Part shown: positions 629 through 20,705 of the stretch, piece after piece
Position numbering within the stretch: the stretch's first letter is position 1
Layout of the letters: the number at the start of each line of letters is the position of its first letter
NCBI GenBank assembly: GCA_013140805.1
Contig: JABFRW010000215.1
Location: 1-21,158, forward strand
Length of the DNA stretch: 21,158 nucleotides
Source: Candidatus Eiseniibacteriota bacterium
GTDB lineage: Bacteria > Eisenbacteria > RBG-16-71-46
Reading direction: 5' to 3'
The notes under the pieces: generated by a model
Seen by the model: only the letters and a program-made list of their open reading frames with translations
What the model was told of the DNA's origin: nothing
The model's database searches: none
Position numbers and translations under genes: made by a program

Positions 629-929
629 TCCGATCTTGGATTCGGACGACGCGCGGCTGCTCGAGCGACTCGCCGAACGCGTGGTGGAATTGCGACTCGA
701 GACGCCGGCCCTGCTGGCGATCGAGAGCGCGCGACCTCTCGCGTTCGTGGCGTCTCAGGCGCTGGTGTTCTTCCAGCCGTTCGTCGCGATGTGGATGCCG
801 GTCGGGGCCTACGAACGCTTCGCGTTGCTCATGCAGGACCGCCGCAATGTGGACGCGCTGGCCGAGCACATCGAGTCGCGAGCCGCCGCTCGACCGCGCA
901 CCGCCGCCCGGCCGGGCCCCAAGCCATGA
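618..929 (+). CDS. Hypothetical protein (103 aa)
   Basis: ATG 618 lies in frame 3. The stop TGA 927-929 overlaps the ATG 926 of the next gene (ATGA coupling). The reading frame is the same as the real C-terminal half of track ORF 273..929. Confidence 0.45.
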   Translation: MASDPILDSDDARLLERLAERVVELRLETPALLAIESARPLAFVASQALVFFQPFVAMWMPVGAYERFALLMQDRRNVDALAEHIESRAAARPRTAARPGPKP

Positions 930-2734: not shown

Positions 2735-3855
2735 TGGCGCACTCGTACACGCCGGGGCTGCGCGTGACCTCGCACGCGGAGTTGATCCGCGAACGCCGGC
2801 TCCCGCTCAAGGGGGACGTGCTGGTGCAGGCGGGCGATGCAGTCGAGGCTCGGACGGTGGTCGCGCGGACCGACCTGCCTGGCAACGTGCAGACGGTCAA
2901 TCTCGCCGCCAAGCTGTCGCTCGATCCGGCGAAGGTGCCGTCCGCGCTGGCACGACCGCTCGGGAGCGCGGTGCGAAAGGGCGAAATCATCGCCGAGGCG
3001 AAGGGGCTGTTCGGACTCATGAGCCAGAAGGTCGAGGCGCCGTCCGACGGCACGCTCGAGAGCGTCTCATCGATCACCGGTCAGCTCATTTTTCGCGAAC
3101 CCCCACTTCCGATCGAAGTCGAAGCCTACGTGCGTGGCGTGGTCGACGAAGTGTTGCCAGGCGAAGGCGTGAGAATTCGAACCGAGGGAGCCTTCCTGCA
3201 GGGCATTTTCGGCGTAGGGGGCGAGACGCACGGACCGGTCGCGATGGTCTCGAGCGGCCCCGAAGCGGAGCTCACCGCCGATCTGCTGCGACCCGAGCAT
3301 CGCGATCACGTGGTGGTCGGTGGGTGCTACGTTTCGCACGCGACGCTGATGCGCGCGCGGGATCTCAGAGTGGCGGCGGTGGTGGTCGGTGGCTTCGACG
3401 ATCGCGACCTGCGCCAATTGCTGGGCCGCGACCTCGGAGTCGCGATCACGGGTTCTGAGACGCTCGGATTCACGCTCATCCTCACCGAGGGCTTCGGTCG
3501 CATCGCGATGGCGGCGCGCAGCTGGAATCTGCTGGCCGCCCATGTCGGCGAGCTGGCGTCGGTGAGCGGCGCGACGCAGATTCGCGCGGGCGTGATGCGC
3601 CCCGAAATCATCATTCCCCGCATCGGGGAGATGAGTGCTCCGGCGGCTGAAATGGGGAGCGGATTCGAGCTCGGCGCCCACATCCGGGTGATTCGGGCGC
3701 CCTACTTCGGACGCATCGGTGCCGTGAGCGCCCTGCCCCCCGAGCTTCACGATCTCGACAGCGGAACGCGGGTCCGCGTCATGCACGTGCGCTTCACCGA
3801 CGACGGCAGCGAGGCGCTGGTGCCGCGCGCGAACGTCGAGCTGATCGAGCGATGA
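2735..3855 (+). CDS. Hypothetical protein (373 aa), translationally coupled partner of the ASKHA ATPase
   Basis: ATG 2735 immediately follows stop TGA 2732-2734. SD GGGAGG sits 6 nt upstream. Motifs GDVLVQAGDAV and KGEIIAEAKG suggest a biotinyl/lipoyl-like barrel-sandwich fold at the N-terminus. No family was recognised. Confidence 0.55.
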
Positions 3856-3879
3856 AATGCCGCGTGGGACCCATTTCCG

Positions 3880-3914
3880 TTGACACTGCGGGAAACGTGT
3901 TGCTAGCGTCCGTC
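3880..3914 (+). promoter_or_regulatory. Candidate sigma70-like promoter (TTGACA -18- TAGCGT) upstream of the membrane-protein operon
   Basis: TTGACA at 3880-3885 and a TAnnnT hexamer 18 nt downstream lie in the 113-bp gap before ATG 3969. The -10 element is weak. Confidence 0.2.
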
Positions 3915-3968
3915 CTCAATCGGTTTCTCGGCACGGCTCGACCGGGGTCGTGCGGAGGGTGCAGGACC

Positions 3969-5183
3969 ATGGAGGTTCGTTTGCGACCTTTCCGCCTACC
4001 CGACCCGCTGCGTGTCGTTGCCCTGCTGGCGTGGGTCGTGTGTGCAGTCGCATTCGCCGGGTCCGCCGGAGCACAGGACTCCACCGGGGTCGCGCAAATC
4101 GCCCCGGCAGCGCCGTCCGGCCTCACGGTCTCCGACGTCGCCAACGACGCGGGCCGCCAGCTCGAGCTCAACTGGAAGCGTTCTCCCGACGATCGCACGG
4201 GCTCGACGCTCGTCACCTTCTATCAGATCGAACGTGCCGATCAGCCCGGCGGTCCCTGGGAGGTCGTCGACTCGGTGGCGATGGCGACCGAGTCCTACGT
4301 CGACCAGTCGGTGCGACGCGAGCAGTCCTATTTCTATCGCGTGTCCTCGATCGGGCCGGGCGGGCTGACCCCGGCGCTCAGCGTCACCGGACCGGCGGTC
4401 GCAACCTCGCAGTTCTTCAATACGGCGCGGTGGAGCGTGCTCGTCTACACGCTGGGCTTCTTCGCATTCGTGATGTTCTTCATCGCTCGAGCGCAGAGCG
4501 GACAGAAGACCTTCCTGCGTCGCATTCCGGGCGTGGATGCGATCGAGGAGGCGATCGGTCGCGCGACCGAAATGGGCCGGCCGGTGCTCTACATCCCGGG
4601 CATCCTCGACATCGACGACATCCAGACCGTGGCGGGACTCGTGATTCTCGAGAGCGTCGCCAAGCTGACGGCGCGCTACCAGACCGCGATCCGGGTGCCG
4701 GTGACGTACCCGATCCCGTTCGCGATCGCGCAGGACATGGTGAAGAACGGTTACCTGAGCGCGGGACGCCCCGACGCTCACGATCCCGATGCGGTGCAGT
4801 TCGTTTCGCCGGAACAGTTCGCCTACGTCGCGAACGTGGGCGGCATCATGCTGCGCGATCGGCCGGGCGCCCACATCTTCATGGGTGCGTTTTACGCCGA
4901 ATCGCTCCTGCTGGCGGAGACCGGCTTCCAGACCGGTGCGATCCAGGTCGCGGGCACCGCGAACGTGCATCAGCTGCCGTTCTTCGTCGTGGCCTGCGAC
5001 TACACGCTGATTGGCGAGGAATTGTTCGCTGCCGGCGCCTACCTGAGCGGAGATCCCAAGCTGGTCGGAAGCCTCAAGGCCATCGACCTCATGAAGATCA
5101 CGCTTCTTCTCACCATCCTCGTCGGCTGTGCGCTCGAAACTCTGGGCCACCACGGCTTCACGAATTGGATGGCAACCCAGTAG
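3969..5183 (+). CDS. Secreted/membrane protein with N-terminal signal peptide, FN3-like domain and C-terminal membrane-associated domain (404 aa)
   Basis: ATG 3969 with SD GGAGGG ~10 nt upstream. The signal peptide is LRVVALLAWVVCAVAFAGSAGAQD. The FN3-like segment (PSGLTV...LNWKRS...TFYQIER...WEVV...SYFYRVSSIGPGGLTPALS) ends with the Y-x-R-V motif. Hydrophobic TM segments follow (WSVLVYTLGFFAFVMFFIA and a C-terminal LMKITLLLTILVGCAL). Confidence 0.55.
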   Translation: MEVRLRPFRLPDPLRVVALLAWVVCAVAFAGSAGAQDSTGVAQIAPAAPSGLTVSDVANDAGRQLELNWKRSPDDRTGSTLVTFYQIERADQPGGPWEVVDSVAMATESYVDQSVRREQSYFYRVSSIGPGGLTPALSVTGPAVATSQFFNTARWSVLVYTLGFFAFVMFFIARAQSGQKTFLRRIPGVDAIEEAIGRATEMGRPVLYIPGILDIDDIQTVAGLVILESVAKLTARYQTAIRVPVTYPIPFAIAQDMVKNGYLSAGRPDAHDPDAVQFVSPEQFAYVANVGGIMLRDRPGAHIFMGAFYAESLLLAETGFQTGAIQVAGTANVHQLPFFVVACDYTLIGEELFAAGAYLSGDPKLVGSLKAIDLMKITLLLTILVGCALETLGHHGFTNWMATQ

Positions 5184-5191
5184 GAGCCCGA

Positions 5192-5854
5192 GTGAAGCGC
5201 GAGATTCCTCTGCTGCTGACGGGTGCGCTGGGATTGCTCATGATCCTGTCGTTCTTCGTACCCCATCAGTGGATCAGCGTGCCGGCAGATTTCATGCAGG
5301 CGAGCGCGATCGTGCTGGTGGCGTTCGGCTACGTGCTGGGAGGTGCGAACGTCCTGCGCGTGAACTTCAGCGCGATCATCAAGCAGAAGTCGGGCTGGCC
5401 CTACAACCTGGTGCTGGTGCTCGGACTGATCGCGACGCTTGCGATCGGTGCGGTCGACGGGTGCGCGAATCGGGGCGGATTCCTGAACGAGGGCACCACC
5501 TCGAAGTGGATCTACGACCAGCTCTACTCGCCGATGGCCTCCACGATGTTCGCGCTGCTCGCGTTCTACATCGCCTCGGCCGCGTTCCGGGCGTTTCGCA
5601 TCCGGACGTTCGAGGCCGGCCTGCTGGCGGTCGCGGCGCTGATCGTGATGCTCGGCCGCGTGCCGCTCACCAACGCACTGACGACGTGGGCCCCGGAGTG
5701 GATGCGGCTCCAAGCATGGCAGGAGTGGATCATGGATGTGCCGCAGAATGCCGCGAAGCGCGCGATCCTGATCGGTGCCGCACTCGGGGTGATGGCGACC
5801 GGGCTTCGCGTGATCCTCGGCATCGAACGAACCTACCTCGGCGCGGAGGAGTGA
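5192..5854 (+). CDS. Hypothetical polytopic membrane protein (220 aa)
   Basis: GTG 5192 follows SD AGGAG. There are multiple hydrophobic helices. The gene is in an operon with its neighbours, with a 4-bp gap to the next ATG. Confidence 0.5.
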   Translation: MKREIPLLLTGALGLLMILSFFVPHQWISVPADFMQASAIVLVAFGYVLGGANVLRVNFSAIIKQKSGWPYNLVLVLGLIATLAIGAVDGCANRGGFLNEGTTSKWIYDQLYSPMASTMFALLAFYIASAAFRAFRIRTFEAGLLAVAALIVMLGRVPLTNALTTWAPEWMRLQAWQEWIMDVPQNAAKRAILIGAALGVMATGLRVILGIERTYLGAEE

Positions 5855-5858
5855 GCCG

Positions 5859-6695
5859 ATGACCCTGCTCGACCGCCTCGCCCACATCGATCGCCGCTGG
5901 ATCTTCCTCGCCATGGGCATCCTGGTGCTGATCCCGCTGCTGTTCCCGCTCGCACTGCCGATCTTCGCCGGCAAACCGGTGCGCGATTTCAATGCCGCGA
6001 TGGAAACGATTCCAGCCGGCTCGACGGTGCTGATGCCGTGCGACTACGACCCCGGCGCGATTCCCGAGCTGGTTCCCATGACGAAAACGGCGCTACGCCA
6101 GCTGTGGGACAAGAACTGCAAGGTGGTGATTCCGGTGCTGTGGCCCGGCGGGCCTGGGCTCGTGGACCGCGTCGTTCGCGAAGTCGCGGCGGAGCCGCGC
6201 TACGCGAGCAAGCGTTATGGCGTCGACTGGGTGAACCTGGGCTACAAGGCGGGCAATGAGGCGGTGATGGTGCTGATGGGCCAGGGAGTCGCAAATGCGT
6301 TCCCGACCGACTTCCGGGGCACTCCGACTCGCGGCATGCCGATCATGGCCAAGGTTCGTGACTACTCGAGCTTCCCGATGCTGGTGAACATCTCGGCCGG
6401 CTATCCCGGAACCAAGGAGTGGGTGCAGCAGGTTCAGGCGCGCTTCCACATCCCGATGGTCGCCGGAGTCACCGCGGTGAGCGCTCCCGAGTTCTATCCG
6501 TACCTGCAATCCAAGCAGCTGCTCGGATTGCTCGGCGGCATGGCGGGCGCCGCGGAATACGAGAAGATCCGCAACGAGAAGGGTACGGCGACCAGCGGAA
6601 TGGACGCGCAGTCGCTCGCTCACCTGTTCGTGGCGCTGTGCATCGTGCTCGGCAACGTGGTCATGCGCCGGCGCGTCGGAGGGAGCGCCTCGTGA
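5859..6695 (+). CDS. Hypothetical membrane-anchored protein (278 aa)
   Basis: ATG 5859 has SD GGAGGAG 7 nt upstream. There is an N-terminal TM segment (WIFLAMGILVLIPLLFPLALPIF), then a soluble domain, then a C-terminal hydrophobic segment. Confidence 0.55.
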   Translation: MTLLDRLAHIDRRWIFLAMGILVLIPLLFPLALPIFAGKPVRDFNAAMETIPAGSTVLMPCDYDPGAIPELVPMTKTALRQLWDKNCKVVIPVLWPGGPGLVDRVVREVAAEPRYASKRYGVDWVNLGYKAGNEAVMVLMGQGVANAFPTDFRGTPTRGMPIMAKVRDYSSFPMLVNISAGYPGTKEWVQQVQARFHIPMVAGVTAVSAPEFYPYLQSKQLLGLLGGMAGAAEYEKIRNEKGTATSGMDAQSLAHLFVALCIVLGNVVMRRRVGGSAS

Positions 6696-7381
6696 GCCCG
6701 CACTGGTCGACCGATCCCGGCGTGTGGATTGCCGCCGCACTCACGATGTTCATCTTCAGCTTCCTCTACAAGGACAACCCGTTCTACAAGTTTGCCGAGC
6801 ACCTGTTCGTCGGAGTGTCGGCCGGTTACTGGATCATCCTCAACTTCTGGACCGTCATCGTGCCGAACCTGTGGACGCCGCTCGTGAACGGATTCGCGGG
6901 CCGGGGCACGGTGGCCGCGAACGTCGGACCACTCAACGTGTCCCAGGGCGACTACCGGGTGTTGTGGGTGATTCCTATGATTCTCGGCGTGATGCTGTTC
7001 GTGCGATTGCTGCCGAAGGGCGGGTGGATTTCGCGTTGGCCGCTCGCGGTGATCCTCGGGGTGTACGCCGGCATCAAGACCACCGGCTTCGCGCAGGGCG
7101 ACTTCGTCGCACAGGTGCAGGCGAGTCTTCAGCCGCTGTGGACCGGGCAGTTCGGCAGCAGCCTCAACGCCGTGATCTTCACGGTCGGCCTCGTGACCTC
7201 GTTGTTCTTCTTCTACTTCAGCCTCGAGCACAAGGGCGGGCTCGGCATCGCCTCCAAGATCGGCATGGCGTTCCTGATGGTCGGCTTCGGCGCGGGCTAC
7301 GGCTACACGGTGATGTCGCGCGTCTCGCTGCTGATCGGGCGCTTTCAGTTCCTGCTCGGCGATTGGATCGGACTCCGCTGA
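6692..7381 (+). CDS. Hypothetical polytopic membrane protein (229 aa)
   Basis: GTG 6692 forms a GTGA overlap with the upstream stop (6693-6695). SD GGAGGGAG lies 7 nt upstream. Several TM helices are present (IAAALTMFIFSFLY, VLWVIPMILGVMLFV, IFTVGLVTSLFFFYF). Confidence 0.5.
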   Translation: MSPHWSTDPGVWIAAALTMFIFSFLYKDNPFYKFAEHLFVGVSAGYWIILNFWTVIVPNLWTPLVNGFAGRGTVAANVGPLNVSQGDYRVLWVIPMILGVMLFVRLLPKGGWISRWPLAVILGVYAGIKTTGFAQGDFVAQVQASLQPLWTGQFGSSLNAVIFTVGLVTSLFFFYFSLEHKGGLGIASKIGMAFLMVGFGAGYGYTVMSRVSLLIGRFQFLLGDWIGLR

Positions 7382-7443
7382 ACGCGCTCCCCGCCACGGG
7401 GCCCGAGTTGCGTTGTGAAGCGCCGGGCGACGCTCCCGAGCAG

Positions 7444-8235
7444 ATGTTGCGCGATCGCGCGTTGCTCGATGAAGTGGAGAAGTCCGGAGCGATCGTCATG
7501 CGGATCTACCGCTTTGCACCCGCCGGCATCACGCTGGGCGCCCACCAGGACCCGCAACGCGAGCTCGACCTCGAACGCTGTGAGCGAGACGGAGTGCGGT
7601 GGGCGGTGCGTCCGACCGGCGGCCGCGCGATCTTTCACGACGACGAGTGGACCTATGCGTTCGCGGCGCCGATCGATCATCCCGAGTGGGGCGGAGGCTT
7701 GCTCGAAGCGTACGATCGAGTCAGCCGGGTGATCGTGAGTTCGCTGCTGCGCCTCGGAGTACCTGCGAGTCTGGCGCGTTCGGGAGGCGCGCGCGCCGGG
7801 ACGGCATCGCGCGCGGAGGTTGCCGCTCCGTGCTTCACTTCGACGGCCCGCCACGAGATCGTCGTGGCGAATCGCAAGCTGGTCGGCAGCGCCCAGCGCC
7901 GCACCGCGACCGTCTACCTGCAGCAGGGCAGTGTCCTGCTCGGCGAGGGTCATTTGCGCCTGGTCGACTACCTCAATCTCGAACTCGAGGCACGCGAGCG
8001 AGAGCGCCAGGCGCTCACCGGCGCGGCCGTCAGTGCGCGGCGCTGGCTCGGCGAACGTGCACCCCTCGAACGTTGGGCCGAAGCGCTGCGAGCGAGCTTC
8101 TCGGTCCCCGGCGAGCCGGCCTGGAGCGGTGGATCGCGCTCCCGATTGGCCCTCGAAAAACCGCCTTCCTATACTGTGTCAAACGTTGTCCCCGAAATGG
8201 CCCGCCTCCGCACTCCGGGAGAGACCCACTCATGA
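7444..8235 (+). CDS. Lipoate-protein ligase / octanoyltransferase family protein (BPL_LplA_LipB catalytic domain)
   Basis: Motifs ITLGAHQ, RPTGGRAIFHDDEWTYAF and NRKLVGSAQRR (the catalytic Lys region) are typical of the LplA/LipB family. The start may instead be TTG 7408, because RCEAPGDAPEQMLRDRALL aligns with the family N-terminus WRLxxSGxxxxAxNMAxDEAL. Confidence 0.55.
   Translation: MLRDRALLDEVEKSGAIVMRIYRFAPAGITLGAHQDPQRELDLERCERDGVRWAVRPTGGRAIFHDDEWTYAFAAPIDHPEWGGGLLEAYDRVSRVIVSSLLRLGVPASLARSGGARAGTASRAEVAAPCFTSTARHEIVVANRKLVGSAQRRTATVYLQQGSVLLGEGHLRLVDYLNLELEARERERQALTGAAVSARRWLGERAPLERWAEALRASFSVPGEPAWSGGSRSRLALEKPPSYTVSNVVPEMARLRTPGETHS
8146..8175 (+). promoter_or_regulatory. Candidate sigma70 promoter (TTGGCC -18- TATACT) for the ABC transporter operon, lying inside the 3' end of the upstream gene
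   Basis: There is a local AT-rich patch with a near-consensus -10 hexamer TATACT at 8170-8175 and a TTGxxx -35 at 8146-8151. It is ~55 bp upstream of the SBP ATG 8232. Confidence 0.25.
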
Positions 8236-10061
8236 TCATCGCGCGCATTCGAACCGTTTCGCTGCTCGCCCTCGGCCTGCTGTTGCTCGCGCTGGCGACC
8301 GGCTGCGGCGGCAGCACCGGAGTCGCCGCTTCGAGCTACAAGGATCCGTTCCCGCTCCCTCGCGACACCATGCAGTTCGTGGCGAAGGAAGTCGGCCGCC
8401 ACGGCGGGCGCTTCGTGATCGGACAGACCTCGGCGCCCAAGTCTTTCAACGCGATCATGGCGAACGAGACCTCGTCCACCGACCTGACGCAGTTGTTGTT
8501 CGTGGGGCTCAGCGAGTACGACAACGGCCGGCAGGTCGAGATCCCGATGGTGGCCAAGAGCTGGGACCTGAGCGAGGACGGCCGTCGCTGGACCTATCAC
8601 ATGCGGCGCGGCGCGGCGTTCTCGGACGGGCACCCGATCACCTCGGCGGACGTGCTGTTCTCGTTCGAGGTGACCTATGACGAGACGCTCCATCCCTCGA
8701 TGCAGGAACTCATCAAGGTGAATGGAAAGCCGTTTCAGATCAGCGCACCCGATTCGTACACCGTCGTGTTCGACATTGCCGAGCCCTACGTGCTCATGAA
8801 TGCGGTCGTGGGTTCGGTCCGCATCATGCCGAAGCACATCCTGGAGCCCGCGTTTCGCGGCGGCAATTTCGCAGCTGCCTACAACTCGAACACAGCTCCC
8901 GAGAGCCTCGTGACGAGTGGGGCCTGGAAGCTCAAGAGCTTCGTGCCGGGCGAGAAGACGGTGCTGACGCGCAATCCGTACTGGTTCGGCGTCGACTCGA
9001 AAGGGCAGCGCCTCCCGTACCTCGACGAACTGACATTCGTGATCGTGCCGGATCAGAACACCGCATTCCTCAAGTTCCAGGCCGGCGATCTCGACGCGCT
9101 CGACAACGTCAAGCCCGAGGACTACAAGACCTACGAAGACATGCAGAAGTCGCATGACTTCACGCTCCACGAGATCGGACCGAGCCTCAACACGAATTTC
9201 TTCTGGTTCAATCTCAACCGGGTGCACGAGCCGAAGCCGGGCCGCAAGCTGGGCTCGACTTACCTCGACGCGACCAAGTACGCCTGGTTCAGCGACGTGC
9301 GCTTCCGGCGCGCGGTGTCGATGGGGATCGATCGCGAAGCGATGATCCGCGGAGTGTTCTTCGGAGACGCGGTCAAGAACTGGGCGACGTACACCGCCGG
9401 CAACAAGCTGTGGTACGACCCGACCATCACGGGCGCCGACTACGATCCCGAAGGCGCGAAGCGGCTGCTCGCGGAGGCCGGCTTCAAGGATCGCGACGGC
9501 GACGGCGTGCTCGAGGACGCGAAGGGCCACACCGTTTCATTCACGATCAAGACGAACGGCGACAACGTGACGCGCGTGCAGATGGCGAACTTCATCAAGG
9601 ACGACCTGGCGAAGATCGGCATCAAGTGCATTCCGACCCCGGTCGACTTCAACACCTTGATCACGAATCTGCGCCAGGACTTCCAGTACGAAGCCTTGCT
9701 TCTGGGGCTGTCTTCCGCGGTACCGCCGGACCCGGGCATGGGGCAGAACGTGTTCCGCTCGAGCGGTCTCACGCACTACTGGAACATCAAGCAGCCCCGG
9801 CCCGAGACGCCCCAGGAGGTCGAGATCGATCGCCTGATCGGCGAGAATGTCGGGACCTTCGACATGGCGATCCGCAAGGCCACGCTCCATCAGATCTTCG
9901 AGATCTGGAATCGCGAGGTCTACACGGTGTGGCTTCCGACTGTGATCATGAAGCTCCCGGTGAGCAATCGCTTCGGTAACACCGAGCCGGTGCCGATTCC
10001 GCATCGCATCCTGTGGAACATCGACCGGGTGTTCGTGAAGTCGCCCGGTCGACCGGCGTGA
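8232..10061 (+). CDS. ABC transporter substrate-binding lipoprotein, family 5 (peptide/oligopeptide/nickel type), 609 aa
   Basis: ATG 8232 forms an ATGA overlap with the upstream stop. The lipoprotein signal is LLALGLLLLALATGC. Length and motifs fit SBP_bac_5. It is followed by cognate permease and ATPase genes. Confidence 0.8.
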   Translation: MIIARIRTVSLLALGLLLLALATGCGGSTGVAASSYKDPFPLPRDTMQFVAKEVGRHGGRFVIGQTSAPKSFNAIMANETSSTDLTQLLFVGLSEYDNGRQVEIPMVAKSWDLSEDGRRWTYHMRRGAAFSDGHPITSADVLFSFEVTYDETLHPSMQELIKVNGKPFQISAPDSYTVVFDIAEPYVLMNAVVGSVRIMPKHILEPAFRGGNFAAAYNSNTAPESLVTSGAWKLKSFVPGEKTVLTRNPYWFGVDSKGQRLPYLDELTFVIVPDQNTAFLKFQAGDLDALDNVKPEDYKTYEDMQKSHDFTLHEIGPSLNTNFFWFNLNRVHEPKPGRKLGSTYLDATKYAWFSDVRFRRAVSMGIDREAMIRGVFFGDAVKNWATYTAGNKLWYDPTITGADYDPEGAKRLLAEAGFKDRDGDGVLEDAKGHTVSFTIKTNGDNVTRVQMANFIKDDLAKIGIKCIPTPVDFNTLITNLRQDFQYEALLLGLSSAVPPDPGMGQNVFRSSGLTHYWNIKQPRPETPQEVEIDRLIGENVGTFDMAIRKATLHQIFEIWNREVYTVWLPTVIMKLPVSNRFGNTEPVPIPHRILWNIDRVFVKSPGRPA

Positions 10062-14311: not shown

Positions 14312-14840
14312 CACCCCGGCCGCTTCGAGCGATCGCGAGCGACTTTCCCCATCCATGCCGAATGCTCGGGCGAATTGACCCCCTGCGCGAGACCGGGAAC
14401 TACAATCGCCCGACGCTGGATCTACTCCACTGGCTGAGATCACGAAGGCAATGATCTGCAAAGCAACGAATTGCGCGGACGGGGTCGAGCTGAAGTGCTG
14501 GCTTCGAGCAGCGTGGCACCTGGCTTGCGGTGTTAGTTCCTCGAACGCCGATCCGGCGGTTGCGGACCGGCAACGACATCGCAACACCAGGTTGTTCCCT
14601 GTTCGACTCGTGATTGGCCGGCTGTGGGCTGATCCCCCTATCGCGAGCGAAGGAGTCTTACGGACCGGTACACGGTCGATACGGGGAACTTTTTAGGGCT
14701 CCGCCAGCGGCACATGCCTCCCAGCTAGACACCCGAGGCCGCAGCGGAGCCCATGACTTTTCGTCCGGAGTTCGTCGAGGTGCGTGTTCGTTCCGCGCCT
14801 CCGATGTCCGCGGTCGCTCGAGACCTCCGGCTCTCGCGCG

Positions 14841-14869
14841 TTGATTCGCTCCGCAAGCCCTGTTAGCTT
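14841..14869 (+). promoter_or_regulatory. Candidate sigma70 promoter (TTGATT -17- TAGCTT) ~80 bp upstream of the BMC operon
   Basis: The hexamers at 14841-14846 and 14864-14869 have an exact 17-nt spacer. This is the only good match in the leader close to the first BMC-H start. Confidence 0.3.
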
Positions 14870-14949
14870 CGCAGCTTCCATGGGATCCGGTGCGGCTCGG
14901 CCGGGCCGCCTTTCGGGTCGCACCCTTGCGGAGAGCGAGCGAACCTCAC

Positions 14950-15231
14950 GTGCCACGCGAAGCCCTGGGACTCATCGAGACCCGTGGGCTGATCGCCGCC
15001 ATCGAGGCGGCGGACGCGATGTGCAAGACGGCGTCGGTCCGTCTGGTTCGCTACGAGAAGATCTCCGGAGCGCTCGTGACCGTCTGCATTCGGGGCCCGG
15101 TGGCTGACGTCGAATCCGCGGTGGAGGCCGGCGCGCGAGCGGCGGCGCGGTTGGGAGCGGTCGTCGCCCACCACGTCATTCCGGCACCCGATCCGCAACT
15201 CGAAGACCGACTCGCGGGACCCGCGCGCTGA
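14950..15231 (+). CDS. BMC-H shell protein (Pfam00936 single BMC domain), divergent paralog
   Basis: [58 protein letters not shown] is a canonical BMC-domain sequence. The start is chosen as GTG 14950 to give the usual ~93-aa size. In-frame ATG 14890 would add a 20-aa extension. Confidence 0.85.
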
Positions 15232-15265
15232 ACGGCGGCCCGATTCCACTGGCAGGGAGGGCGGC

Positions 15266-15565
15266 ATGCAGGAAGAGGCTCTGGGACTCATCGAGACCCG
15301 CGGGTTCGTGGCGATGGTCGAGGCGACCGACGCGATGGTGAAGGCGGCACGGGTTCAGCTGGTGCATTACGAAAAGATCGGCGGCGGCTACGTGACCGCC
15401 GTGGTACGCGGTGACGTCGCCGCAGTTCGCGCCGCGACCGAAGCAGGTGCCGCCGCCGCCGCCCGCGTGGGTGAGGTGGTTTCGGTGCACGTGATTCCGC
15501 GCCCGCACGGCCAGCTCGAGGACGCGCTGCCGATCGGCCGCGCCGCCGCTCCGGCCAAGAAGTAG
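15266..15565 (+). CDS. BMC-H shell protein (canonical hexamer paralog)
   Basis: The sequence [81 protein letters not shown] fits the PduA/EutM/CcmK pattern. SD GGGAGGG lies 5 nt upstream. Confidence 0.9.
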
Positions 15566-15571
15566 CGTTCG

Positions 15572-15877
15572 ATGATTCTCGCGCAGGTGCTGGGGACCGT
15601 CGTCTCCACGCGCAAGGACCGCGGCCTGGTGGGGCTCAAGCTGATGCTGTGTCGCGAGCTCGACGCCACGCTGAAGCCGCTCGGCAACTACGTCGTGGCG
15701 GTGGACGCGGTCGGTGCCGGCACCGATGAAGTCGTGCTGGTCGCGAGTGGTTCGTCGGCGCGCCTCACGGAAGCCTCAAAGGACAAGCCGGTCGACGCCG
15801 TGATCACGGGGATCGTGGACGTGGTCGAGGTCGGGGGTCGCGACGTCTACTCGAAGCGTGAAGGTGTGACGGCGTGA
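15572..15877 (+). CDS. BMC-P vertex (pentamer) protein, EutN/CcmL/PduN family
   Basis: MILAQVLGTVVSTRKD...VAVDAVGAGTDEVVLVASGSSAR...DAVITGIVD matches the Pfam03319 pattern. Confidence 0.85.
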   Translation: MILAQVLGTVVSTRKDRGLVGLKLMLCRELDATLKPLGNYVVAVDAVGAGTDEVVLVASGSSARLTEASKDKPVDAVITGIVDVVEVGGRDVYSKREGVTA

Positions 15878-17310
15878 GCCGCGAGACGCTCGGCACCGCG
15901 CTCGATGCCCGCCGCATCAGCGGGATCGTCGCCGAGGTGCTCGAAAAGCTCGATCGAGGCTCGGCGTCCGCCGGCGGGAGCGCACCGCTCGGAATTCATC
16001 CAGACCTCGACACGGCCGTCCGCGCCGCGCGCGATTCGTTCAAAGCCTTCGACGAGGTGCCGCTCTCGACCCGTCAGGCGGTGATCGACTCGATCCGCTC
16101 CACGCTCGCCACCCAGTATCGGACGCTCTCCGAGCTCGCGGTCGAGGAAACCGGGTTGGGGCGCGTCGACGACAAGATTCTCAAAAACCGCCTCGTCACC
16201 GAGAAGACGCCGGGCACCGAGGACCTCGCGCCGATCACCTGGACGGGTGACCACGGCCTGACGCTTGCCGAGCGGGCACCCTATGGCGTCATCGCGGTCA
16301 TCACGCCGGTCACCAATCCGAGTGAGACCGTGATCAACAACGGCATCTCGATGATCGCGGGCGGCAATACCGTGGTGCTGTGCCCACACCCGAACGCGCG
16401 CCGGGTCTCGAATCTGACCGTCGATCTCATGAATCGTGCGGCGCGCAAGGCCGGTGCTCCGCTGCCGCTGATCCACTCGGTCGACGAGCCGACACTCGAG
16501 GTCGCTCAGGCGTTGCTGCGCTACAAGGGTATCCGACTGAACGTGGTCACCGGCGGTCCCGCAGTGGTGCGCGAGGCGCTGGCCGCGAGCAAGAAGGCGA
16601 TCACCGCGGGGCCCGGCAATCCGCCCGCGGTGGTGGACGAGACCGCGGACCTCGAGAAGGCCGGACGCGATCTGGTGATGGGCGGCTCGCTCGACAACAA
16701 CATCATCTGCACCGACGAGAAGGAGATCGTGGTGGTTTCGGTCATCGCCGATCGTCTCAAGGAAGCGATGGCGCGCGCGGGTGCGGTGATCCTCGCGCCG
16801 CATCAGATCGAAACGCTGCGCCGGGTGGTGTTCGAGAAGGAGCAGGGGCCGCGAAAGTACGCGATCATCCAGCGTCGCTTCGTCGGCAAGAACATCGACG
16901 TGATCCTGCGCGAGGCCGGAATCCCGTGCGATCCGACCAAGCGCATGGCGGTGTGCGAGGTCGACGCCGATCACCCGTTCCTGTGGACCGAGATGATGAT
17001 GCCGATCATGCCGCTCACGCGGGTCCGAACCGCCGACGACGCGATCGATTTCGCGATCGAGGTGGAACAGGGCAATCGGCACACCGCTTCGATGCACTCG
17101 CGCAACATCGAAAAACTCTCGCGCATGGCACGCGAGTGCGACTGCTCGATCTTCGTCAAGAACGGTCCGAATGCCGCGGGACTGGGCTTCGGGGGCGAGG
17201 GACCGACCAGTTTCACGATCGCGAGCCCCAGCGGCGAGGGCATGACCACGGCGCGCAGCTTCACGCGCTTCCGTCGTTGCAGTCTGATCGACTCGTTCCG
17301 GATCGTGTGA
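15874..17310 (+). CDS. CoA-acylating aldehyde dehydrogenase (PduP/EutE-like) with N-terminal encapsulation-peptide-like extension
   Basis: GTG 15874 forms a GTGA overlap with the BMC-P stop. The Rossmann region is GVIAVITPVTNPSETVINNGISMIAGGNTVVLCPHP. The catalytic Cys context is NNIICTDEKE. The N-terminus contains the amphipathic helix RISGIVAEVLEKL followed by the G/S/A linker DRGSASAGGSAPLG. Confidence 0.85.
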   Translation: MSRETLGTALDARRISGIVAEVLEKLDRGSASAGGSAPLGIHPDLDTAVRAARDSFKAFDEVPLSTRQAVIDSIRSTLATQYRTLSELAVEETGLGRVDDKILKNRLVTEKTPGTEDLAPITWTGDHGLTLAERAPYGVIAVITPVTNPSETVINNGISMIAGGNTVVLCPHPNARRVSNLTVDLMNRAARKAGAPLPLIHSVDEPTLEVAQALLRYKGIRLNVVTGGPAVVREALAASKKAITAGPGNPPAVVDETADLEKAGRDLVMGGSLDNNIICTDEKEIVVVSVIADRLKEAMARAGAVILAPHQIETLRRVVFEKEQGPRKYAIIQRRFVGKNIDVILREAGIPCDPTKRMAVCEVDADHPFLWTEMMMPIMPLTRVRTADDAIDFAIEVEQGNRHTASMHSRNIEKLSRMARECDCSIFVKNGPNAAGLGFGGEGPTSFTIASPSGEGMTTARSFTRFRRCSLIDSFRIV

Positions 17311-17864
17311 TGAACGTCTCCATTGCAGCCATCGAAACCAGCTCCATCGCACAAGGTGCGGTGGTGGGCGACGCGATGGTCAAAACCGCCGAAGTCGAGC
17401 TGATCGAGGCCCGCACGCTCTCGCCCGGCAAGTTCTGGGTCCTGATCGGTGGGGGTGTGGCCGAAGTTCGCGCAGCGCACCGGCGCGGACTCGACGCGGC
17501 GGCCGAGACGCGACTCGACGATCTGCTCATTCCGCAGCTTCATCTGGATGTCATGCCGGCGCTCAAGGGACGTGTGACGGGCCCCGATCACGACGCGCTG
17601 GGCGTGATCGAAACCCTGACCGCAGCGGCCACGATCGTGGCCGCCGACCGAGCCAGCAAGACTGCCGGCATCCTGTTGCGCGAAATTCGGCTCGCGAACG
17701 GTCTCGGGGGCAAGGGCTTCGTGACGCTGTCGGGCGATGTCGCGAGCGTTCAGGCTGCGGTCGAGGCCGGCAAGTCGGAGGCGCAGCGTGGCGGGCTGCT
17801 GGTGCGCGCGGTCGTGATTCCGCGACTTCACGAGCAGATGAAGTCGCGGCTGTGGGTGCGGTGA
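17310..17864 (+). CDS. BMC-T shell protein (tandem BMC domains, PduT-like, 184 aa)
   Basis: ATG 17310 shares its A with the upstream TGA. There are two BMC-domain repeats (IAAIETSSIAQGAVVGDAMVKTAEVELIEA... and DALGVIETLTAAATIVAADRASKTAGILLREIR...). The protein contains no cysteine, so a PduT-type Fe-S site is not possible. Confidence 0.8.
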   Translation: MNVSIAAIETSSIAQGAVVGDAMVKTAEVELIEARTLSPGKFWVLIGGGVAEVRAAHRRGLDAAAETRLDDLLIPQLHLDVMPALKGRVTGPDHDALGVIETLTAAATIVAADRASKTAGILLREIRLANGLGGKGFVTLSGDVASVQAAVEAGKSEAQRGGLLVRAVVIPRLHEQMKSRLWVR

Positions 17865-17868
17865 CGCC

Positions 17869-18159
17869 ATGCACTTCGCGCGCGTGATCGGCACCGTCGT
17901 CTGCACCGAGAAGGTGCCTTCGTGGCGCGGCCAGCGACTCCTGATGTTGCAGCCGACGACGCCCGGCGGTGAAGACCTGGGCCGCCGCGTGGTGGCAATC
18001 GATCTGGTCTCGGCCGCGCCGGGTCAACAGGTGTTCTACGTGCGCGGCCGCGAAGCAGCGACCGCGCTTGCGAACCCCGACAATCCCGCCGACGCCGCGA
18101 TCGTGGGTATCGTCGATCAGGTCAGCGAGTCCGATGCTCCGGCGGGAGCTCGAGCCTGA
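17869..18159 (+). CDS. BMC-P vertex protein (second paralog)
   Basis: MHFARVIGTVVCTEK...VVAIDLVSAAPGQQVFYVRGREA...DAAIVGIVD matches the EutN/CcmL family pattern. Confidence 0.8.
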   Translation: MHFARVIGTVVCTEKVPSWRGQRLLMLQPTTPGGEDLGRRVVAIDLVSAAPGQQVFYVRGREAATALANPDNPADAAIVGIVDQVSESDAPAGARA

Positions 18160-18428
18160 TGCAGATCGCGCGCGTCATGGGGGAGGTGGTCGCGACCACT
18201 CACCACCGCGATCTGGATGGGCGCAAGCTGTTGCTCGTGCAGCCGGAGAATCCCGACGGCTCCGCGCGTGGGGGCCGCGTGATCGCGGTCGACGCGTCTC
18301 AGGCGGGGGTCGGGGATCGGGTGCTGGTCGCCGACGAGGGGAATGCCGCCGCCCAGGTGCTGGAACGTGGCCGCGGTGCGATCCGCACCGTGATCGTCGG
18401 GATCATCGACGATGTGGCCGGGGGATGA
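18159..18428 (+). CDS. BMC-P vertex protein (third paralog)
   Basis: MQIARVMGEVVATTHH...VIAVDASQAGVGDRVLVADEGNAA...RTVIVGIID matches the family pattern. The TGATG junction overlaps the previous stop. Confidence 0.8.
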   Translation: MQIARVMGEVVATTHHRDLDGRKLLLVQPENPDGSARGGRVIAVDASQAGVGDRVLVADEGNAAAQVLERGRGAIRTVIVGIIDDVAGG

Positions 18429-18536
18429 GGTCCGTGCTACTGTCCCCGGCCGAATCGCGCTCCGCCGCGCCCCCGATGCGGCGCGGAGCGATTGCTCCGC
18501 GCAGTGACTCAGCGTTCTGACCGGGAGGGCCGCACC

Positions 18537-18839
18537 ATGACCAAGGCTGACCTCGTCGAGCAGATCGCCATTGATACGGGCGTTTCGAAGAATCACACCG
18601 CCCTGATCGTGGACGGAATGCTCGACGCCATCTGCCGTGCGTTGAGCGACGGGAAGCATCTCGAAATCCGGGGATTCGGCACCTTCAAGGTGCGCGAGCG
18701 CCGCGCTCGCCGAGCGCGCAATCCGCGCAGCGGTACCGAAGTCATGGTGCCCGCGAAACTGGTGCCCGTTTTCAAGCCGAGCAAAGAACTCAAGGCTCAC
18801 GTGGTCGAAGTCGAGACCCCCGAGCCGGTCGCAAGCTAG
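18537..18839 (+). CDS. HU/IHF-family nucleoid-associated DNA-binding protein (100 aa)
   Basis: MTKADLVEQIAIDTGVSKNHTALIVDGMLDAICRALSDGKHLEIRGFGTFKVRERRARRARNPRSGTEVMVPAKLVPVFKPSKELK fits the HU/IHF pattern, including the GFGTF..R.AR.ARNP..G arm. SD GGGAGGG lies 7 nt upstream of ATG 18537. Confidence 0.8.
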   Translation: MTKADLVEQIAIDTGVSKNHTALIVDGMLDAICRALSDGKHLEIRGFGTFKVRERRARRARNPRSGTEVMVPAKLVPVFKPSKELKAHVVEVETPEPVAS

Positions 18840-18859
18840 ACCCCTAGGGAGGAGTTGGA

Positions 18860-18955
18860 ATGGGATCGGGTAAGAAGCGCAAGCGTAAGAAAATCGCGAC
18901 GCACAAGCGTAAGAAGCGCCTGCGGAAGAACCGCCATAAGAAGCGCGTCCGCTAG
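18860..18955 (+). CDS. bS22-like small ribosomal protein (31 aa, extremely basic), not present in the ORF track
   Basis: ATG 18860 has a strong SD GGGAGGAG 6 nt upstream. The translation is MGSGKKRKRKKIATHKRKKRLRKNRHKKRVR. This closely resembles the actinobacterial/Bacteroidetes 30S protein bS22, which I recall as [33 protein letters not shown]. The stop is TAG 18953-18955. Confidence 0.6.
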   Translation: MGSGKKRKRKKIATHKRKKRLRKNRHKKRVR

Positions 18956-18989
18956 TGATCGTCGCGCCGGCTCCCCGGAGGAGCCGGCG

Positions 18990-20705
18990 CTGCGCCTCGT
19001 CGGCCGCGCGTGGGAGACGCGCGGCCGATGGATCTTCGAGCCCTCCAAACGCAGTCGCAGTGGTGTGCGCGAATTGCGCTGGCCGGGGCGTCAGCCGCCC
19101 GATCCCGGGGACTTCTGTGTCGCCGAGCTCGACGAGGAGGGGATCTACCACCTCGTCGAGTTGCTGGGTGCCGATGATCGACCCGCGTGGGACGACGTGG
19201 CGGTGGTCTCGCAATTTCGACTGCCGACCCGCTTTCCGCGCGAGGTCCTCGATGAGGCGTCCGCGTTTCAGGAACCCGACGATGCGGAGCGCCAGGGTCG
19301 CGAGGACCTGCGCGACTCCTGGTGCGCGACCATCGACCCCGAGGACGCACGCGATCACGACGATGCCCTCTCGCTGACGCCCATCGGGCGCGGGCGTTCC
19401 GAGGTCGGCATCCACATCGCCGACGTCTCGCACTACGTCCGCCCCGACACGGCGCTCGACCGCGAGGCGCTCGCGCGTGGAACCAGCTGCTATCTGCCGG
19501 GCGGTGTCGTGCCGATGCTCCCCGAACACCTGTCGTCGGAATTGTGCTCGCTGCTGCCCGATCGAGATCGGCTCGCGGTGTCGGTGTTCGTGACGCTCGA
19601 CTCGAAGGGTGAACTGCACGGAGTTCGGTTCGCCGAAACCGTGATCCGGAGTCGCCAGCGGCTCGACTACGGCCGCGTTCAGGCGGCCCTGGACGGGAAG
19701 CAGCCGCTTACGGCCGAAGTTCAGGAGCCGATCGAGGGCCTGATGGAACTGGCTCGAGCGCTCCGCCGTCGGCGCTTCGCCAATGGGGCATTGGCGCTCG
19801 AAGTTCCCGAGGTCAAGGCGTGGGTCGACGAGCAGGGCATGCCGGTTCGAATCGAACGCCGCCCGCACCTCGAAAGCCACGAGCTGATCGAGGAGTTCAT
19901 GTTGCTCGCGAATCGTTGTGTGGGCGTCGAAGGCGCTGCGCGCGCGAGCGGACTGCTCTACCGAGTCCACGAACGCCCGCACGAGCGCAAGCTGGTGGAC
20001 CTCGACCGCATGCTCAAGACACTCGGCCTGCCGCGGCCGGCGCGGACGGACGACCCGGCGCAGGCGCTCCAGGCACTGTTACGCGTGAAACTCGATCCGC
20101 CTCATCGACGCCTGCTGCATCGCCTCGTCCTGCGAACGTTGCCACGCGCCCGCTATCTGGAACGCGATCTCGGTCACTTCGGACTCGCAACCACGCAGTA
20201 CGCGCACTTCACGTCGCCGATCCGGCGCTATCCGGACCTCCACAATCACCGACGGGTGAAGGAGTGGGTCCGCGAACAGCGCAGCGCGGCGTGGGATCCG
20301 CATGCGCTCGAGCGACTCGCGGATCGCTGCAGCGCCACGGAGCAGAACGCGACCGATGCCGAGCGCGAGGGGGTGAGGGTCAAGAGCTTGCGCTCACTCG
20401 AGGGGCGACTCGGAGAGCAGGCTTCGGGTATCATCACCGGCCTGATTCCTCAAGGCTTCTTCGTGGAGCTGGAAGACGCGCCGGTGGATGGCTTCGTACG
20501 CCCGTCGCAATGGCTCGACGATTATTTTCTACTGGATCCCTCGGGCGTTCGATTGGTGGGCCGCCGCACGCGTCGAAGCTTCAGTCTCGGCGATACCGTG
20601 CGTGTGACGGTGGCTCGCGTCGACGTACCGGCTCGCGAGTGCGACTTCGCACTCGATGCACCGATGTCGCGCCGGCGTGTCCGCGCGCGAAGGAGACACG
20701 GATGA
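18990..20705 (+). CDS. RNase II/RNase R-family 3'-5' exoribonuclease (RNB domain + C-terminal S1 domain); start uncertain, proposed CTG
   Basis: The RNB catalytic motif is IDPEDARDHDDALS. An N-terminal cold-shock-like strand is RLVGRAWETRGRWIFEP. The C-terminal S1-like segment is GIITGLIPQGFFVELE...GDTVRVTVARVD. After the bS22 stop, the only in-frame start-like codon with an SD (GGAGGAG, 6 nt upstream) is CTG 18990. The track ORF from TTG 18855 would overlap bS22. Confidence 0.7.
   Translation: MRLVGRAWETRGRWIFEPSKRSRSGVRELRWPGRQPPDPGDFCVAELDEEGIYHLVELLGADDRPAWDDVAVVSQFRLPTRFPREVLDEASAFQEPDDAERQGREDLRDSWCATIDPEDARDHDDALSLTPIGRGRSEVGIHIADVSHYVRPDTALDREALARGTSCYLPGGVVPMLPEHLSSELCSLLPDRDRLAVSVFVTLDSKGELHGVRFAETVIRSRQRLDYGRVQAALDGKQPLTAEVQEPIEGLMELARALRRRRFANGALALEVPEVKAWVDEQGMPVRIERRPHLESHELIEEFMLLANRCVGVEGAARASGLLYRVHERPHERKLVDLDRMLKTLGLPRPARTDDPAQALQALLRVKLDPPHRRLLHRLVLRTLPRARYLERDLGHFGLATTQYAHFTSPIRRYPDLHNHRRVKEWVREQRSAAWDPHALERLADRCSATEQNATDAEREGVRVKSLRSLEGRLGEQASGIITGLIPQGFFVELEDAPVDGFVRPSQWLDDYFLLDPSGVRLVGRRTRRSFSLGDTVRVTVARVDVPARECDFALDAPMSRRRVRARRRHG

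Follow-up and report, generated by a model that had tools for sequence, protein, structure and literature searches.

We analysed a 21,158-bp stretch of DNA (hereafter the window), which is the entire contig JABFRW010000215.1 of a metagenome-assembled genome of Candidatus (Ca.) Eisenbacteria and which carries a compact operon for a bacterial microcompartment (BMC). The operon occupies positions 14950-18428 of the plus strand and comprises seven close-packed genes in the order BMC-H, BMC-H, BMC-P, aldehyde dehydrogenase (AldDH), BMC-T, BMC-P, BMC-P. The G+C content of the window is 64-70%, a range in which the mechanical list of open reading frames (ORFs) is rich in spurious frames, and coding frames were chosen by third-position G+C. 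In Pfam and NCBIfam scans, all seven ORFs matched named families far over the curated cut-offs:

14950-15231, plus strand: BMC-H1, 93 aa, GTG start; PF00936, E=8e-29
15266-15565, plus strand: BMC-H2, 99 aa; PF00936, E=3e-30, and reaching the EutM cut-off in NCBIfam
15572-15877, plus strand: BMC-P1, 101 aa; PF03319, E=5e-30
15874-17310, plus strand: AldDH, 478 aa; PF00171, and NCBIfam PRK15398 at 608 bits versus a cut-off of 403
17310-17864, plus strand: BMC-T, 184 aa; two PF00936 domains, E=1e-37; best NCBIfam model PduT, under its cut-off
17869-18159, plus strand: BMC-P2, 96 aa; PF03319, E=4e-25
18159-18428, plus strand: BMC-P3, 89 aa, the final gene of the operon; PF03319, E=1e-23

A preliminary description of this DNA, made from the letters alone, had proposed seven contiguous and translationally coupled genes, and its coordinates proved exact. 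The junctions measure, in gene order, +34, +6, -4 (GTGA), -1 (TGATG), +4 and -1 nt, with the ATG of the BMC-T gene overlapping the stop codon of the AldDH gene. The proposed shell complement (2 BMC-H, 1 BMC-T and 3 BMC-P) was borne out by searches with hidden Markov models (HMMs) of shell proteins, in which all six genes matched PF00936 or PF03319 (E between 1e-23 and 1e-37), and its recognition of the single enzyme as a CoA-acylating AldDH agrees with the PF00171 and PRK15398 matches listed above. The statement that the window holds no signature (aldehyde-generating) enzyme, phosphotransacylase (PTAC), alcohol dehydrogenase (ADH) or regulator also stands, as none was found among the other window ORFs scanned with Pfam and NCBIfam. 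Nor did the Pfam scans find a PduS-like gene in the window, and the family scans returned neither deoxyribose-5-phosphate aldolase (DeoC/DERA; pfam01791) nor RpiB (pfam02502) there.

The six shell genes encode the full parts list of an icosahedral shell: a standard and a specialised hexamer, a cysteine-less, PduT-like pseudohexameric trimer and three pentamers. BMC-H2 is the standard hexamer and probably the major facet protein. It carries the KAA, IPRPH and GGG (pore loop) motifs; in its orthologues DAMVKAARV and the pore motif YEKIGGGYV are invariant, IPRPH is present in 51 of 53, and identity across the clade is 82-93%. Among solved structures, the Haliangium ochraceum (HO) BMC-H (5DJB/5V74; E=9e-39) comes closest, with about 75% identity by a hand count on the alignment. 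BMC-H1 belongs to a specialised hexamer type, with the edge motif IPAPDP in place of IPRPH and a non-canonical pore loop that varies across about 50 orthologues; its identity is 63% to BMC-H2 and 54-74% to its own orthologues. BMC-T is of the single-trimer (BMC-Ts), PduT-like kind (nearest structures 3NWG and PduT, 3N79 and 3PAC), with a serine, invariant in about 50 orthologues, at the position of the Fe-S pore cysteine in the PduT 'CPGK' motif. The nearest solved structure to the vertex pentamer BMC-P1 is the H. ochraceum BMC-P (5V74). Pairwise identities among BMC-P1, BMC-P2 and BMC-P3 are 38-39%, and the three are anciently diverged pentamer paralogues.

The enzyme (100% identical to NCBI NOT35734.1) belongs to the EutE/PduP-type subfamily (NCBIfam PRK15398), and among solved structures the BMC-associated aldehyde dehydrogenase 5JFL is closest to it (E=1e-122). 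The catalytic cysteine, within LDNNIICTDEKE, aligns to that of 5JFL and is invariant in 55 orthologues. At the N-terminus, an encapsulation peptide at about residues 8-27 is followed by a linker at about residues 28-40; aligned homologues keep both the amphipathic helix RIxxIVAEVLERLE and a variable Gly/Ala/Pro linker, and the alignment to the PDB chains begins only at residue 30, beyond the helix. The protein is predicted to be a CoA-acylating aldehyde dehydrogenase that carries an N-terminal encapsulation peptide.

A locus of this composition has already been catalogued. The type 'metabolosome with incomplete core 7' (MIC7) was defined from six loci of Ca. Latescibacteria and Ca. Eisenbacteria (Sutter et al. 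2021, Nat Commun 12:3809, Supplementary Data 2; PMC8217296). Its sole enzyme is an AldDH bearing an N-terminal encapsulation peptide; its shell genes include one standard and one more specialised BMC-H, a BMC-P triplet and, in four of the six loci, a BMC-Ts of the 'drab' kind without a pore cysteine and without a PduS partner (PMC8217296). The catalogue places the MIC7 AldDH beside that of SPU3, one of its sugar-phosphate utilisation (SPU) types, and its MIC7 entry mentions a BMC-Tdp in a satellite location and no enzyme satellite; in its BMC-P tree a 101-aa protein from Ca. Eisenbacteria RBG_16_71_46 bears the MIC7 label, and its BMC-Tdp tree has no Eisenbacteria entry (PMC8217296).

The window agrees with MIC7 on the phylum, the AldDH as sole enzyme, its peptide, the two kinds of BMC-H, the cysteine-less BMC-Ts and the lack of PduS; as to the BMC-P triplet, it has three PF03319 paralogues. 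There is no substantive difference in the window locus, and the clade is far larger than the six catalogued loci. BMC-P1 of the window is 101 aa long, equal in length to the MIC7-labelled protein of RBG_16_71_46. A scan of species-representative genomes yielded the RBG_16_71_46 locus itself (L025, MFFQ01000037.1): its AldDH is 74% identical to that of the window, the seven genes stand in identical order, and the flanks match, including the upstream peptide-type ABC importer (Opp) and the downstream HU and RNase R genes. Close genome matches are mostly labelled Eisenbacteria. Because the catalogue description fits and the RBG_16_71_46 exemplar locus is syntenic, the window locus is very probably, as judged from gene content and order, a MIC7 orthologue. 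The preliminary description had assigned the operon to the incomplete-core metabolosome class, and comparison with the 2021 catalogue narrows this to one published type, MIC7. The locus type was catalogued in 2021 for Eisenbacteria, and the window is a re-discovery of a known, functionally unsolved type.

We collected 55 related Eisenbacteria loci from genomes and metagenomes, with AldDHs 69-80% identical to that of the window (two loci are duplicates and a few are cut by contig ends). The order H-H-P-AldDH-T-P-P is constant in every one of them that is not cut by a contig end. Among the MIC7 loci are L026, on the closed chromosome OY970178.1, and L010, on the 1.16-Mb contig CAVSAC010000010.1. 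Homologues of the AldDH are abundant in metagenomes, with at least 120 protein matches, the best 120 all being 74-80% identical. Four homologues on contigs of 216 kb to 1.16 Mb share one gene order across the operon and both flanks: on the 5' side non-annotated genes, an LplA-like gene and Opp, then the operon, and on the 3' side HU, a 31-aa ORF, RNase R, PilZ, aroA, cmk, plsC, rpsA and mutS. The window is the entire contig, and sequence beyond its ends was read only in such orthologous loci. The preliminary description had named a signature enzyme, PTAC and ADH just outside the window as the finding that would overturn it; on the orthologous contigs of 0.2-1.2 Mb, housekeeping genes were the only genes found within 10 kb on either side, with none of these three enzymes. 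No partner enzyme, whether aldehyde-producing or recycling CoA and NAD+, was found within 10 kb in any of the 55 fetched loci.

We next placed the AldDH among its relatives. A neighbour-joining tree of 84 sequences (as opposed to a rooted maximum-likelihood tree) groups the MIC7 AldDHs in a single clade, whose member loci all lack an aldolase, a BMC-Tdp and an RpiB-DeoC fusion within 10 kb. Searches by tblastn with the RpiB-DeoC fusion and with the BMC-Tdp of locus L069 gave no match in any MIC7-clade locus. Of the other fetched relatives, all except four have within 10 kb either a class II aldolase or a BMC-Tdp, the latter nearly always accompanied by an RpiB-DeoC fusion; the exceptions are three loci truncated by contig ends and L062, the sister of the MIC7 clade. 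L062 lies on a high-G+C contig of 7.4 kb that has no shell genes; its AldDH (2966-4768) is 58% identical to that of the window and has an amphipathic N-terminal stretch.

Loci of Calditrichia, Verrucomicrobiota, Acidobacteriota and Anaerolineae have AldDHs 51-61% identical to that of the window, and most contain an H-P-AldDH-Ts-P-P module. Two of these that were read in detail (L064 and L069) encode an RpiB-DeoC fusion and a CcmP-like BMC-Tdp, together with an Fe-ADH in L069. The loci nearest to MIC7 outside the clade (AldDH 56-61% identical) have the RpiB-DeoC fusion, a BMC-Tdp and a cysteine-less BMC-Ts, fitting the description of SPU3 as a type with DeoC/DERA and RpiB signature enzymes, a CcmP-like BMC-Tdp and a BMC-Ts without PduS or a pore cysteine (PMC8217296). 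The SPU signature enzyme has been shown to be an active deoxyribose-5-phosphate aldolase (PMC11585597).

Another relative occurs within lineages related to Eisenbacteria. Five such loci (L078, L081, L084, L085 and L087; AldDH 52-55% identical to that of the window) have one BMC-H and the module followed by a class II aldolase, at 12552-13343 in L081, 12556-13260 in L084, 10001-10747 in L085 and 10001-10837 in L087. The aldolase has a cysteine-rich tail (GCGGCxxC); in three of the five sequences read, the terminal segment is an amphipathic helix resembling a C-terminal encapsulation peptide. This aldolase-type locus lies at a different chromosomal site, beside rpsT, purN, purC and purH.

These loci bear on a reading of the window operon as a PVM or PVM-like (fucose/rhamnose) microcompartment, to which the three BMC-P paralogues with two BMC-H and the occurrence of a related module with a class II aldolase in other Eisenbacteria would lend themselves. 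A class II aldolase (pfam00596), a PTAC, an acetate kinase and a lactaldehyde reductase are, however, absent from the window and from within 10 kb in its orthologues; the AldDHs of the aldolase-type Eisenbacteria loci are only 52-55% identical and their site differs, and the catalogue puts the MIC7 AldDH next to SPU3. We regard a PVM-type compartment as highly improbable. The preliminary description had called the gene set reminiscent of PVM-like or HO-like loci; the first comparison did not hold, SPU3 being closer by AldDH and BMC-T, and the second held for the shell proteins BMC-H2 and BMC-P1 only.

Taken together, the best overall explanation is that the window contains a MIC7 locus encoding a shell around one CoA-acylating AldDH, to which we give a probability of roughly 0.8. 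That this AldDH-containing shell acts on an aldehyde is, on our analysis, likewise quite likely. As established BMC biology would have it, the hexamers and the trimer would tile the facets, the pentamers would cap the vertices, and the N-terminal peptide would recruit the AldDH into the shell lumen. Inside the shell, a small toxic or volatile aldehyde would react with CoA and NAD+ to give acyl-CoA and NADH, and the enzymes that produce the aldehyde and recycle CoA and NAD+ would either be encoded elsewhere or be dispensed with. As to the substrate, deoxyribose-5-phosphate aldolase yields acetaldehyde. Because the AldDH and the P-AldDH-Ts-P-P module are closest to those of SPU3, whose signature enzyme is DERA, acetaldehyde would be the likeliest substrate, a tentative assignment that we hold at well below even odds.

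Several points weigh against the explanation given above. The identity of the AldDH to SPU3-type enzymes (56-61%) is barely above that to aldolase-type enzymes (52-55%), and the step from relatedness to substrate is weak because the two ranges differ so little. An AldDH alone cannot regenerate CoA and NAD+ within a closed shell, and the locus has neither a PduS/PduT electron conduit nor a large-pore BMC-Tdp. The genome is seen through one contig only, with any partner enzymes outside the view. The shell proteins were assigned by Pfam and NCBIfam family and by motif, and our literature search found no paper following up MIC7 and no experimental evidence for it. Finally, the operon is accessory, not essential, as some close relatives have no operon at the same site.

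The missing partners might be encoded at a distance. According to this explanation, the organism has a complete metabolosome, with the signature enzyme (DERA/RpiB, or a class II aldolase with a peptide) and possibly the PTAC, ADH and a BMC-Tdp on satellites. We consider such a split locus a serious possibility, at slightly less than even odds. A precedent exists in HO type I, with its aldolase on a satellite (PMC8217296), and the MIC7 catalogue entry itself mentions the satellite BMC-Tdp. In almost every related AldDH clade a signature enzyme or BMC-Tdp partner stands beside the same P-AldDH-Ts-P-P module, and a lone AldDH would be unable to recycle its own cofactors. On the other hand, the catalogue has no MIC7 enzyme satellite and no Eisenbacteria in its BMC-Tdp tree, and all three BMC-P genes lie in the main locus, unlike HO type I. 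We also considered a satellite class II aldolase directly. Peptide-bearing high-G+C homologues exist, but the two whose context was checked both belong to another kind of main locus, one that contains an aldolase and is found in other Eisenbacteria lineages, and the candidate was set aside. In a protein search with an SPU3 BMC-Tdp from Verrucomicrobiota as the query, the listed matches were all at least 71% identical to the query, which is no evidence of absence in Eisenbacteria.

The non-coding DNA around the operon contains three further features:

14593-14753, plus strand: candidate conserved structured RNA, with a 97-nt irregular hairpin whose apical region/core GGCTGATCCCCCTATCGCGAGCGAAGGAG is invariant and a second G+C-rich hairpin ending GGGGCCCATGA
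14841-14869, plus strand: putative sigma-70-type promoter about 80 nt before the BMC-H1 start codon, with -35 TTGATT and -10 TAGCTT separated by 17 nt whose last bases are TGt (extended -10)
18458-18490, plus strand: G+C-rich inverted repeat CGCTCCGCCGCG..GCGGCGCGGAGCG, read from the sequence, between BMC-P3 and the HU gene (likely start ATG at 18537)

A generic promoter scan called no promoter, and the operon promoter was inferred from conservation. In relatives the motif takes the form TTGACC-N17(..CCCTGnTAGCGT), i.e. TGn-TAGCGT, and in 28 related loci precedes the point where the BMC-H1 match begins by about 95-115 nt; one of the 28 is L003, a locus without the upstream RNA. At the 3' end, the inverted repeat may serve the operon as a terminator or attenuator, or else as a hairpin that stabilises the transcript. 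No U-run follows it and the generic terminator scan was silent there, returning only terminator-like sites on the minus strand inside genes.

The RNA candidate lies in the intergenic gap of about 640 nt (14312-14949) between the Opp ATPase gene and the operon, as a conserved block of about 160 nt. The block is 77-98% identical across 49 related loci, and the intergenic DNA around it does not align. Of the 55 related loci, only six lack it, and in five of these the sequence is cut off upstream. The fold was assessed over 44 distinct sequences: 98.2% of cells were paired and 11 of 37 pairs had compensatory changes, values reached by none of 500 shuffles, and slid controls were only 36-50% paired. 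Conserved G-U pairs point to the plus strand, and Rfam 15 gave no match to the region, even at E<=10. A riboswitch or leader of the BMC operon was considered and rejected, as the element lies upstream of the promoter of the operon, is absent from the operon-bearing L003 and is present in operon-less loci. Given its place upstream of that promoter and its retention in operon-less loci, we regard it as a probable independent small RNA and not as a BMC leader.

With a 29-nt core of this RNA as an anchor, a scan across metagenomes yielded 119 stretches. Of these, 78 extended at least 900 nt downstream, and BMC-H genes lay within 1.5 kb in 68 of the 78. Several of the other ten keep the upstream Opp and the downstream HU/RNase R without the BMC operon: in L204, Opp and the RNA are followed by HU, and in L108 and L133 a protein of 650-690 aa occupies the place of the operon. 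In L177 and in the genome locus L016, unrelated genes are inserted between the RNA and the operon; the L016 insert includes a 448-aa ORF that, by eye only, is an HNH/DUF222-like endonuclease candidate. By this comparison of gene arrangements, the operon behaves as a cassette, present or absent at one fixed position in a syntenic housekeeping region, with the conserved RNA on one side and the HU gene on the other. The adjacent Opp importer is no evidence on the substrate of the BMC. A functional link of the importer or the LplA-like gene to the BMC was rejected as unsupported: vertical synteny explains the adjacency, relatives without the BMC keep Opp, the RNA and HU, and L016 and L177 carry unrelated insertions.

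The cassette data bear on two further explanations. One is that the operon is a decaying, non-functional remnant of an SPU3- or HO-like locus that has lost its signature enzyme. The signature enzyme of nearly all sister clades is indeed missing, and some close relatives have no operon at the same site, but all seven ORFs are present in every uncut locus, in genomes whose intergenic DNA has ceased to align. The catalytic cysteine, the encapsulation peptide and the edge and pore motifs of the shell are conserved, BMC-H2 has kept 82-93% identity across the clade, and the promoter motif recurs upstream in 28 related loci. Decay is therefore very improbable.

The other explanation is a minimal organelle with a single enzyme, in which the shell traps cytosolic or external aldehydes, CoA, NAD+ and products cross the shell, perhaps via BMC-H1, and there is no dedicated signature enzyme. 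This would agree with the constancy of the seven-gene set in 55 loci, alongside which only housekeeping synteny is conserved, with the behaviour of the operon as a self-contained cassette present or absent at one site, and with the non-canonical and variable pore loop of BMC-H1. No known metabolosome operates in this way, however, and typical BMC-H and BMC-Ts pores are generally considered too small for CoA or NAD(H). We judge a minimal organelle of this kind unlikely, and put slightly lower still the stronger claim that MIC7 is a true one-enzyme general aldehyde trap that exchanges CoA and NAD(H) across its shell, for example through BMC-H1.

The remaining genes of the window lie on either side of the operon. 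Upstream is an Opp/Dpp-type ABC importer of five genes (SBP_bac_5, two permeases and two ATPases), and downstream are an HU/IHF-like protein, a 31-aa basic ORF and RNase R. The flanks given in the preliminary description were right as regards the peptide-type importer, HU and RNase R; its bS22 would correspond to the 31-aa basic ORF, and its PilZ gene is seen in orthologous loci, where it adjoins RNase R, the copy of the window running off the contig end. The small ORF is as follows:

18860-18955, plus strand: 31-aa, very basic ORF MGSGKKRKRKKIATHKRKKRLRKNRHKKRVR, between HU and RNase R, kept as a 31-aa gene in orthologous loci

It had no NCBIfam match, and we presume a resemblance to ribosomal protein bS22. 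The mechanical RNase R ORF of 616 aa (18855-20705) overlaps it, and the real start of RNase R is probably near 19070.

Two more reading frames upstream of the operon also appear to be overlong. The mechanical ORFs of the LplA-like gene (6724-8235) and the solute-binding protein (7599-10061), both on the plus strand, overlap by more than 600 nt. As their orthologues are shorter (257-270 and 608-621 aa), the true starts would lie near 7465 and 8220-8240, respectively. Further upstream, 5128-7381 (plus strand) contains three consecutive ORFs of about 244, 278 and 229 aa without a Pfam or NCBIfam match, and orthologous loci have ORFs of about 275 and 230 aa without a Pfam match at the same place upstream of the LplA-like gene. 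The block at 791-5183 (plus strand) opens with a GlmL/MutL-family ASKHA ATPase (PF13941, E=3e-125; below the NCBIfam GlmL cut-offs), followed by an ORF without a family match and a DUF6754 protein, with no B12-dependent mutase nearby and nothing seen to tie it to the BMC. This ATPase, 12 kb upstream of the operon, was considered as a lead to a signature enzyme, being kin to accessory proteins of B12-dependent mutases, and was dropped in view of the sub-cut-off score and the absence of an adjoining mutase.

The locus does not represent a novel kind of system. For incomplete-core metabolosomes, how the enclosed AldDH is fed and how its CoA and NAD+ are recycled is an acknowledged open problem, and MIC7 now appears as a large, tightly conserved clade that is common in soil and groundwater Eisenbacteria, beyond the six catalogued loci. 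With seven genes in about 3.5 kb, it is a compact candidate for heterologous shell and cargo experiments and a clean test case for the workability of a one-enzyme microcompartment. A one-enzyme aldehyde trap, if true, would be a new operating mode for metabolosomes.

Finally, we compared the window locus with better characterised systems. With the PDU and EUT compartments of Salmonella, the paradigm from experiment, it shares a PduP/EutE-family AldDH, PduA/EutM-, PduT- and EutN/PduN-like shell proteins and the predicted targeting by an encapsulation peptide; unlike them, it lacks a signature enzyme dependent on B12, PduL or Pta, an alcohol dehydrogenase, a reactivase and a regulator, and the Fe-S ligand is missing from its BMC-T.

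Three BMC-T proteins occur in the shell of H. ochraceum. HO loci are found mostly in Deltaproteobacteria, their AldDH groups with those of SPU5 and SPU7, and HO-T2 is a BMC-Tdp; apart from shell genes, type I main loci contain only an AldDH, which bears an N-terminal encapsulation peptide, the aldolase being located on a satellite (PMC8217296). The likeness to the window is confined to the shell (BMC-H2 about 75% identical to the HO BMC-H, and BMC-P1 closest to the HO BMC-P) and to the content of the type I main locus. HO has BMC-Tdp proteins and a satellite with two BMC-P and a class II aldolase, whereas the window has one BMC-Ts, no BMC-Tdp and all three BMC-P within the main locus.

The aldolase-type Eisenbacteria loci come from related lineages of the phylum and share the six-gene module and an AldDH with an N-terminal encapsulation peptide; they differ from the window in the single BMC-H, the class II aldolase, the AldDH identity of only 52-55% and the site. 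SPU3 shares with the window the nearest AldDH outside MIC7, the H-P-AldDH-Ts-P-P module, a cysteine-less BMC-Ts without PduS, the BMC-P triplet and the N-terminal peptide of the AldDH; it has RpiB-DeoC and a CcmP-like BMC-Tdp beside the module, whereas MIC7 has neither of these and possesses an extra specialised BMC-H. Judged by how closely the AldDHs are related and by the type of BMC-T, SPU3 and not PVM is the fuller system nearest to the window locus. These comparisons suggest that MIC7 is the shell-plus-AldDH chassis of the SPU3 and aldolase types without a signature enzyme and with a second, specialised hexamer gained.

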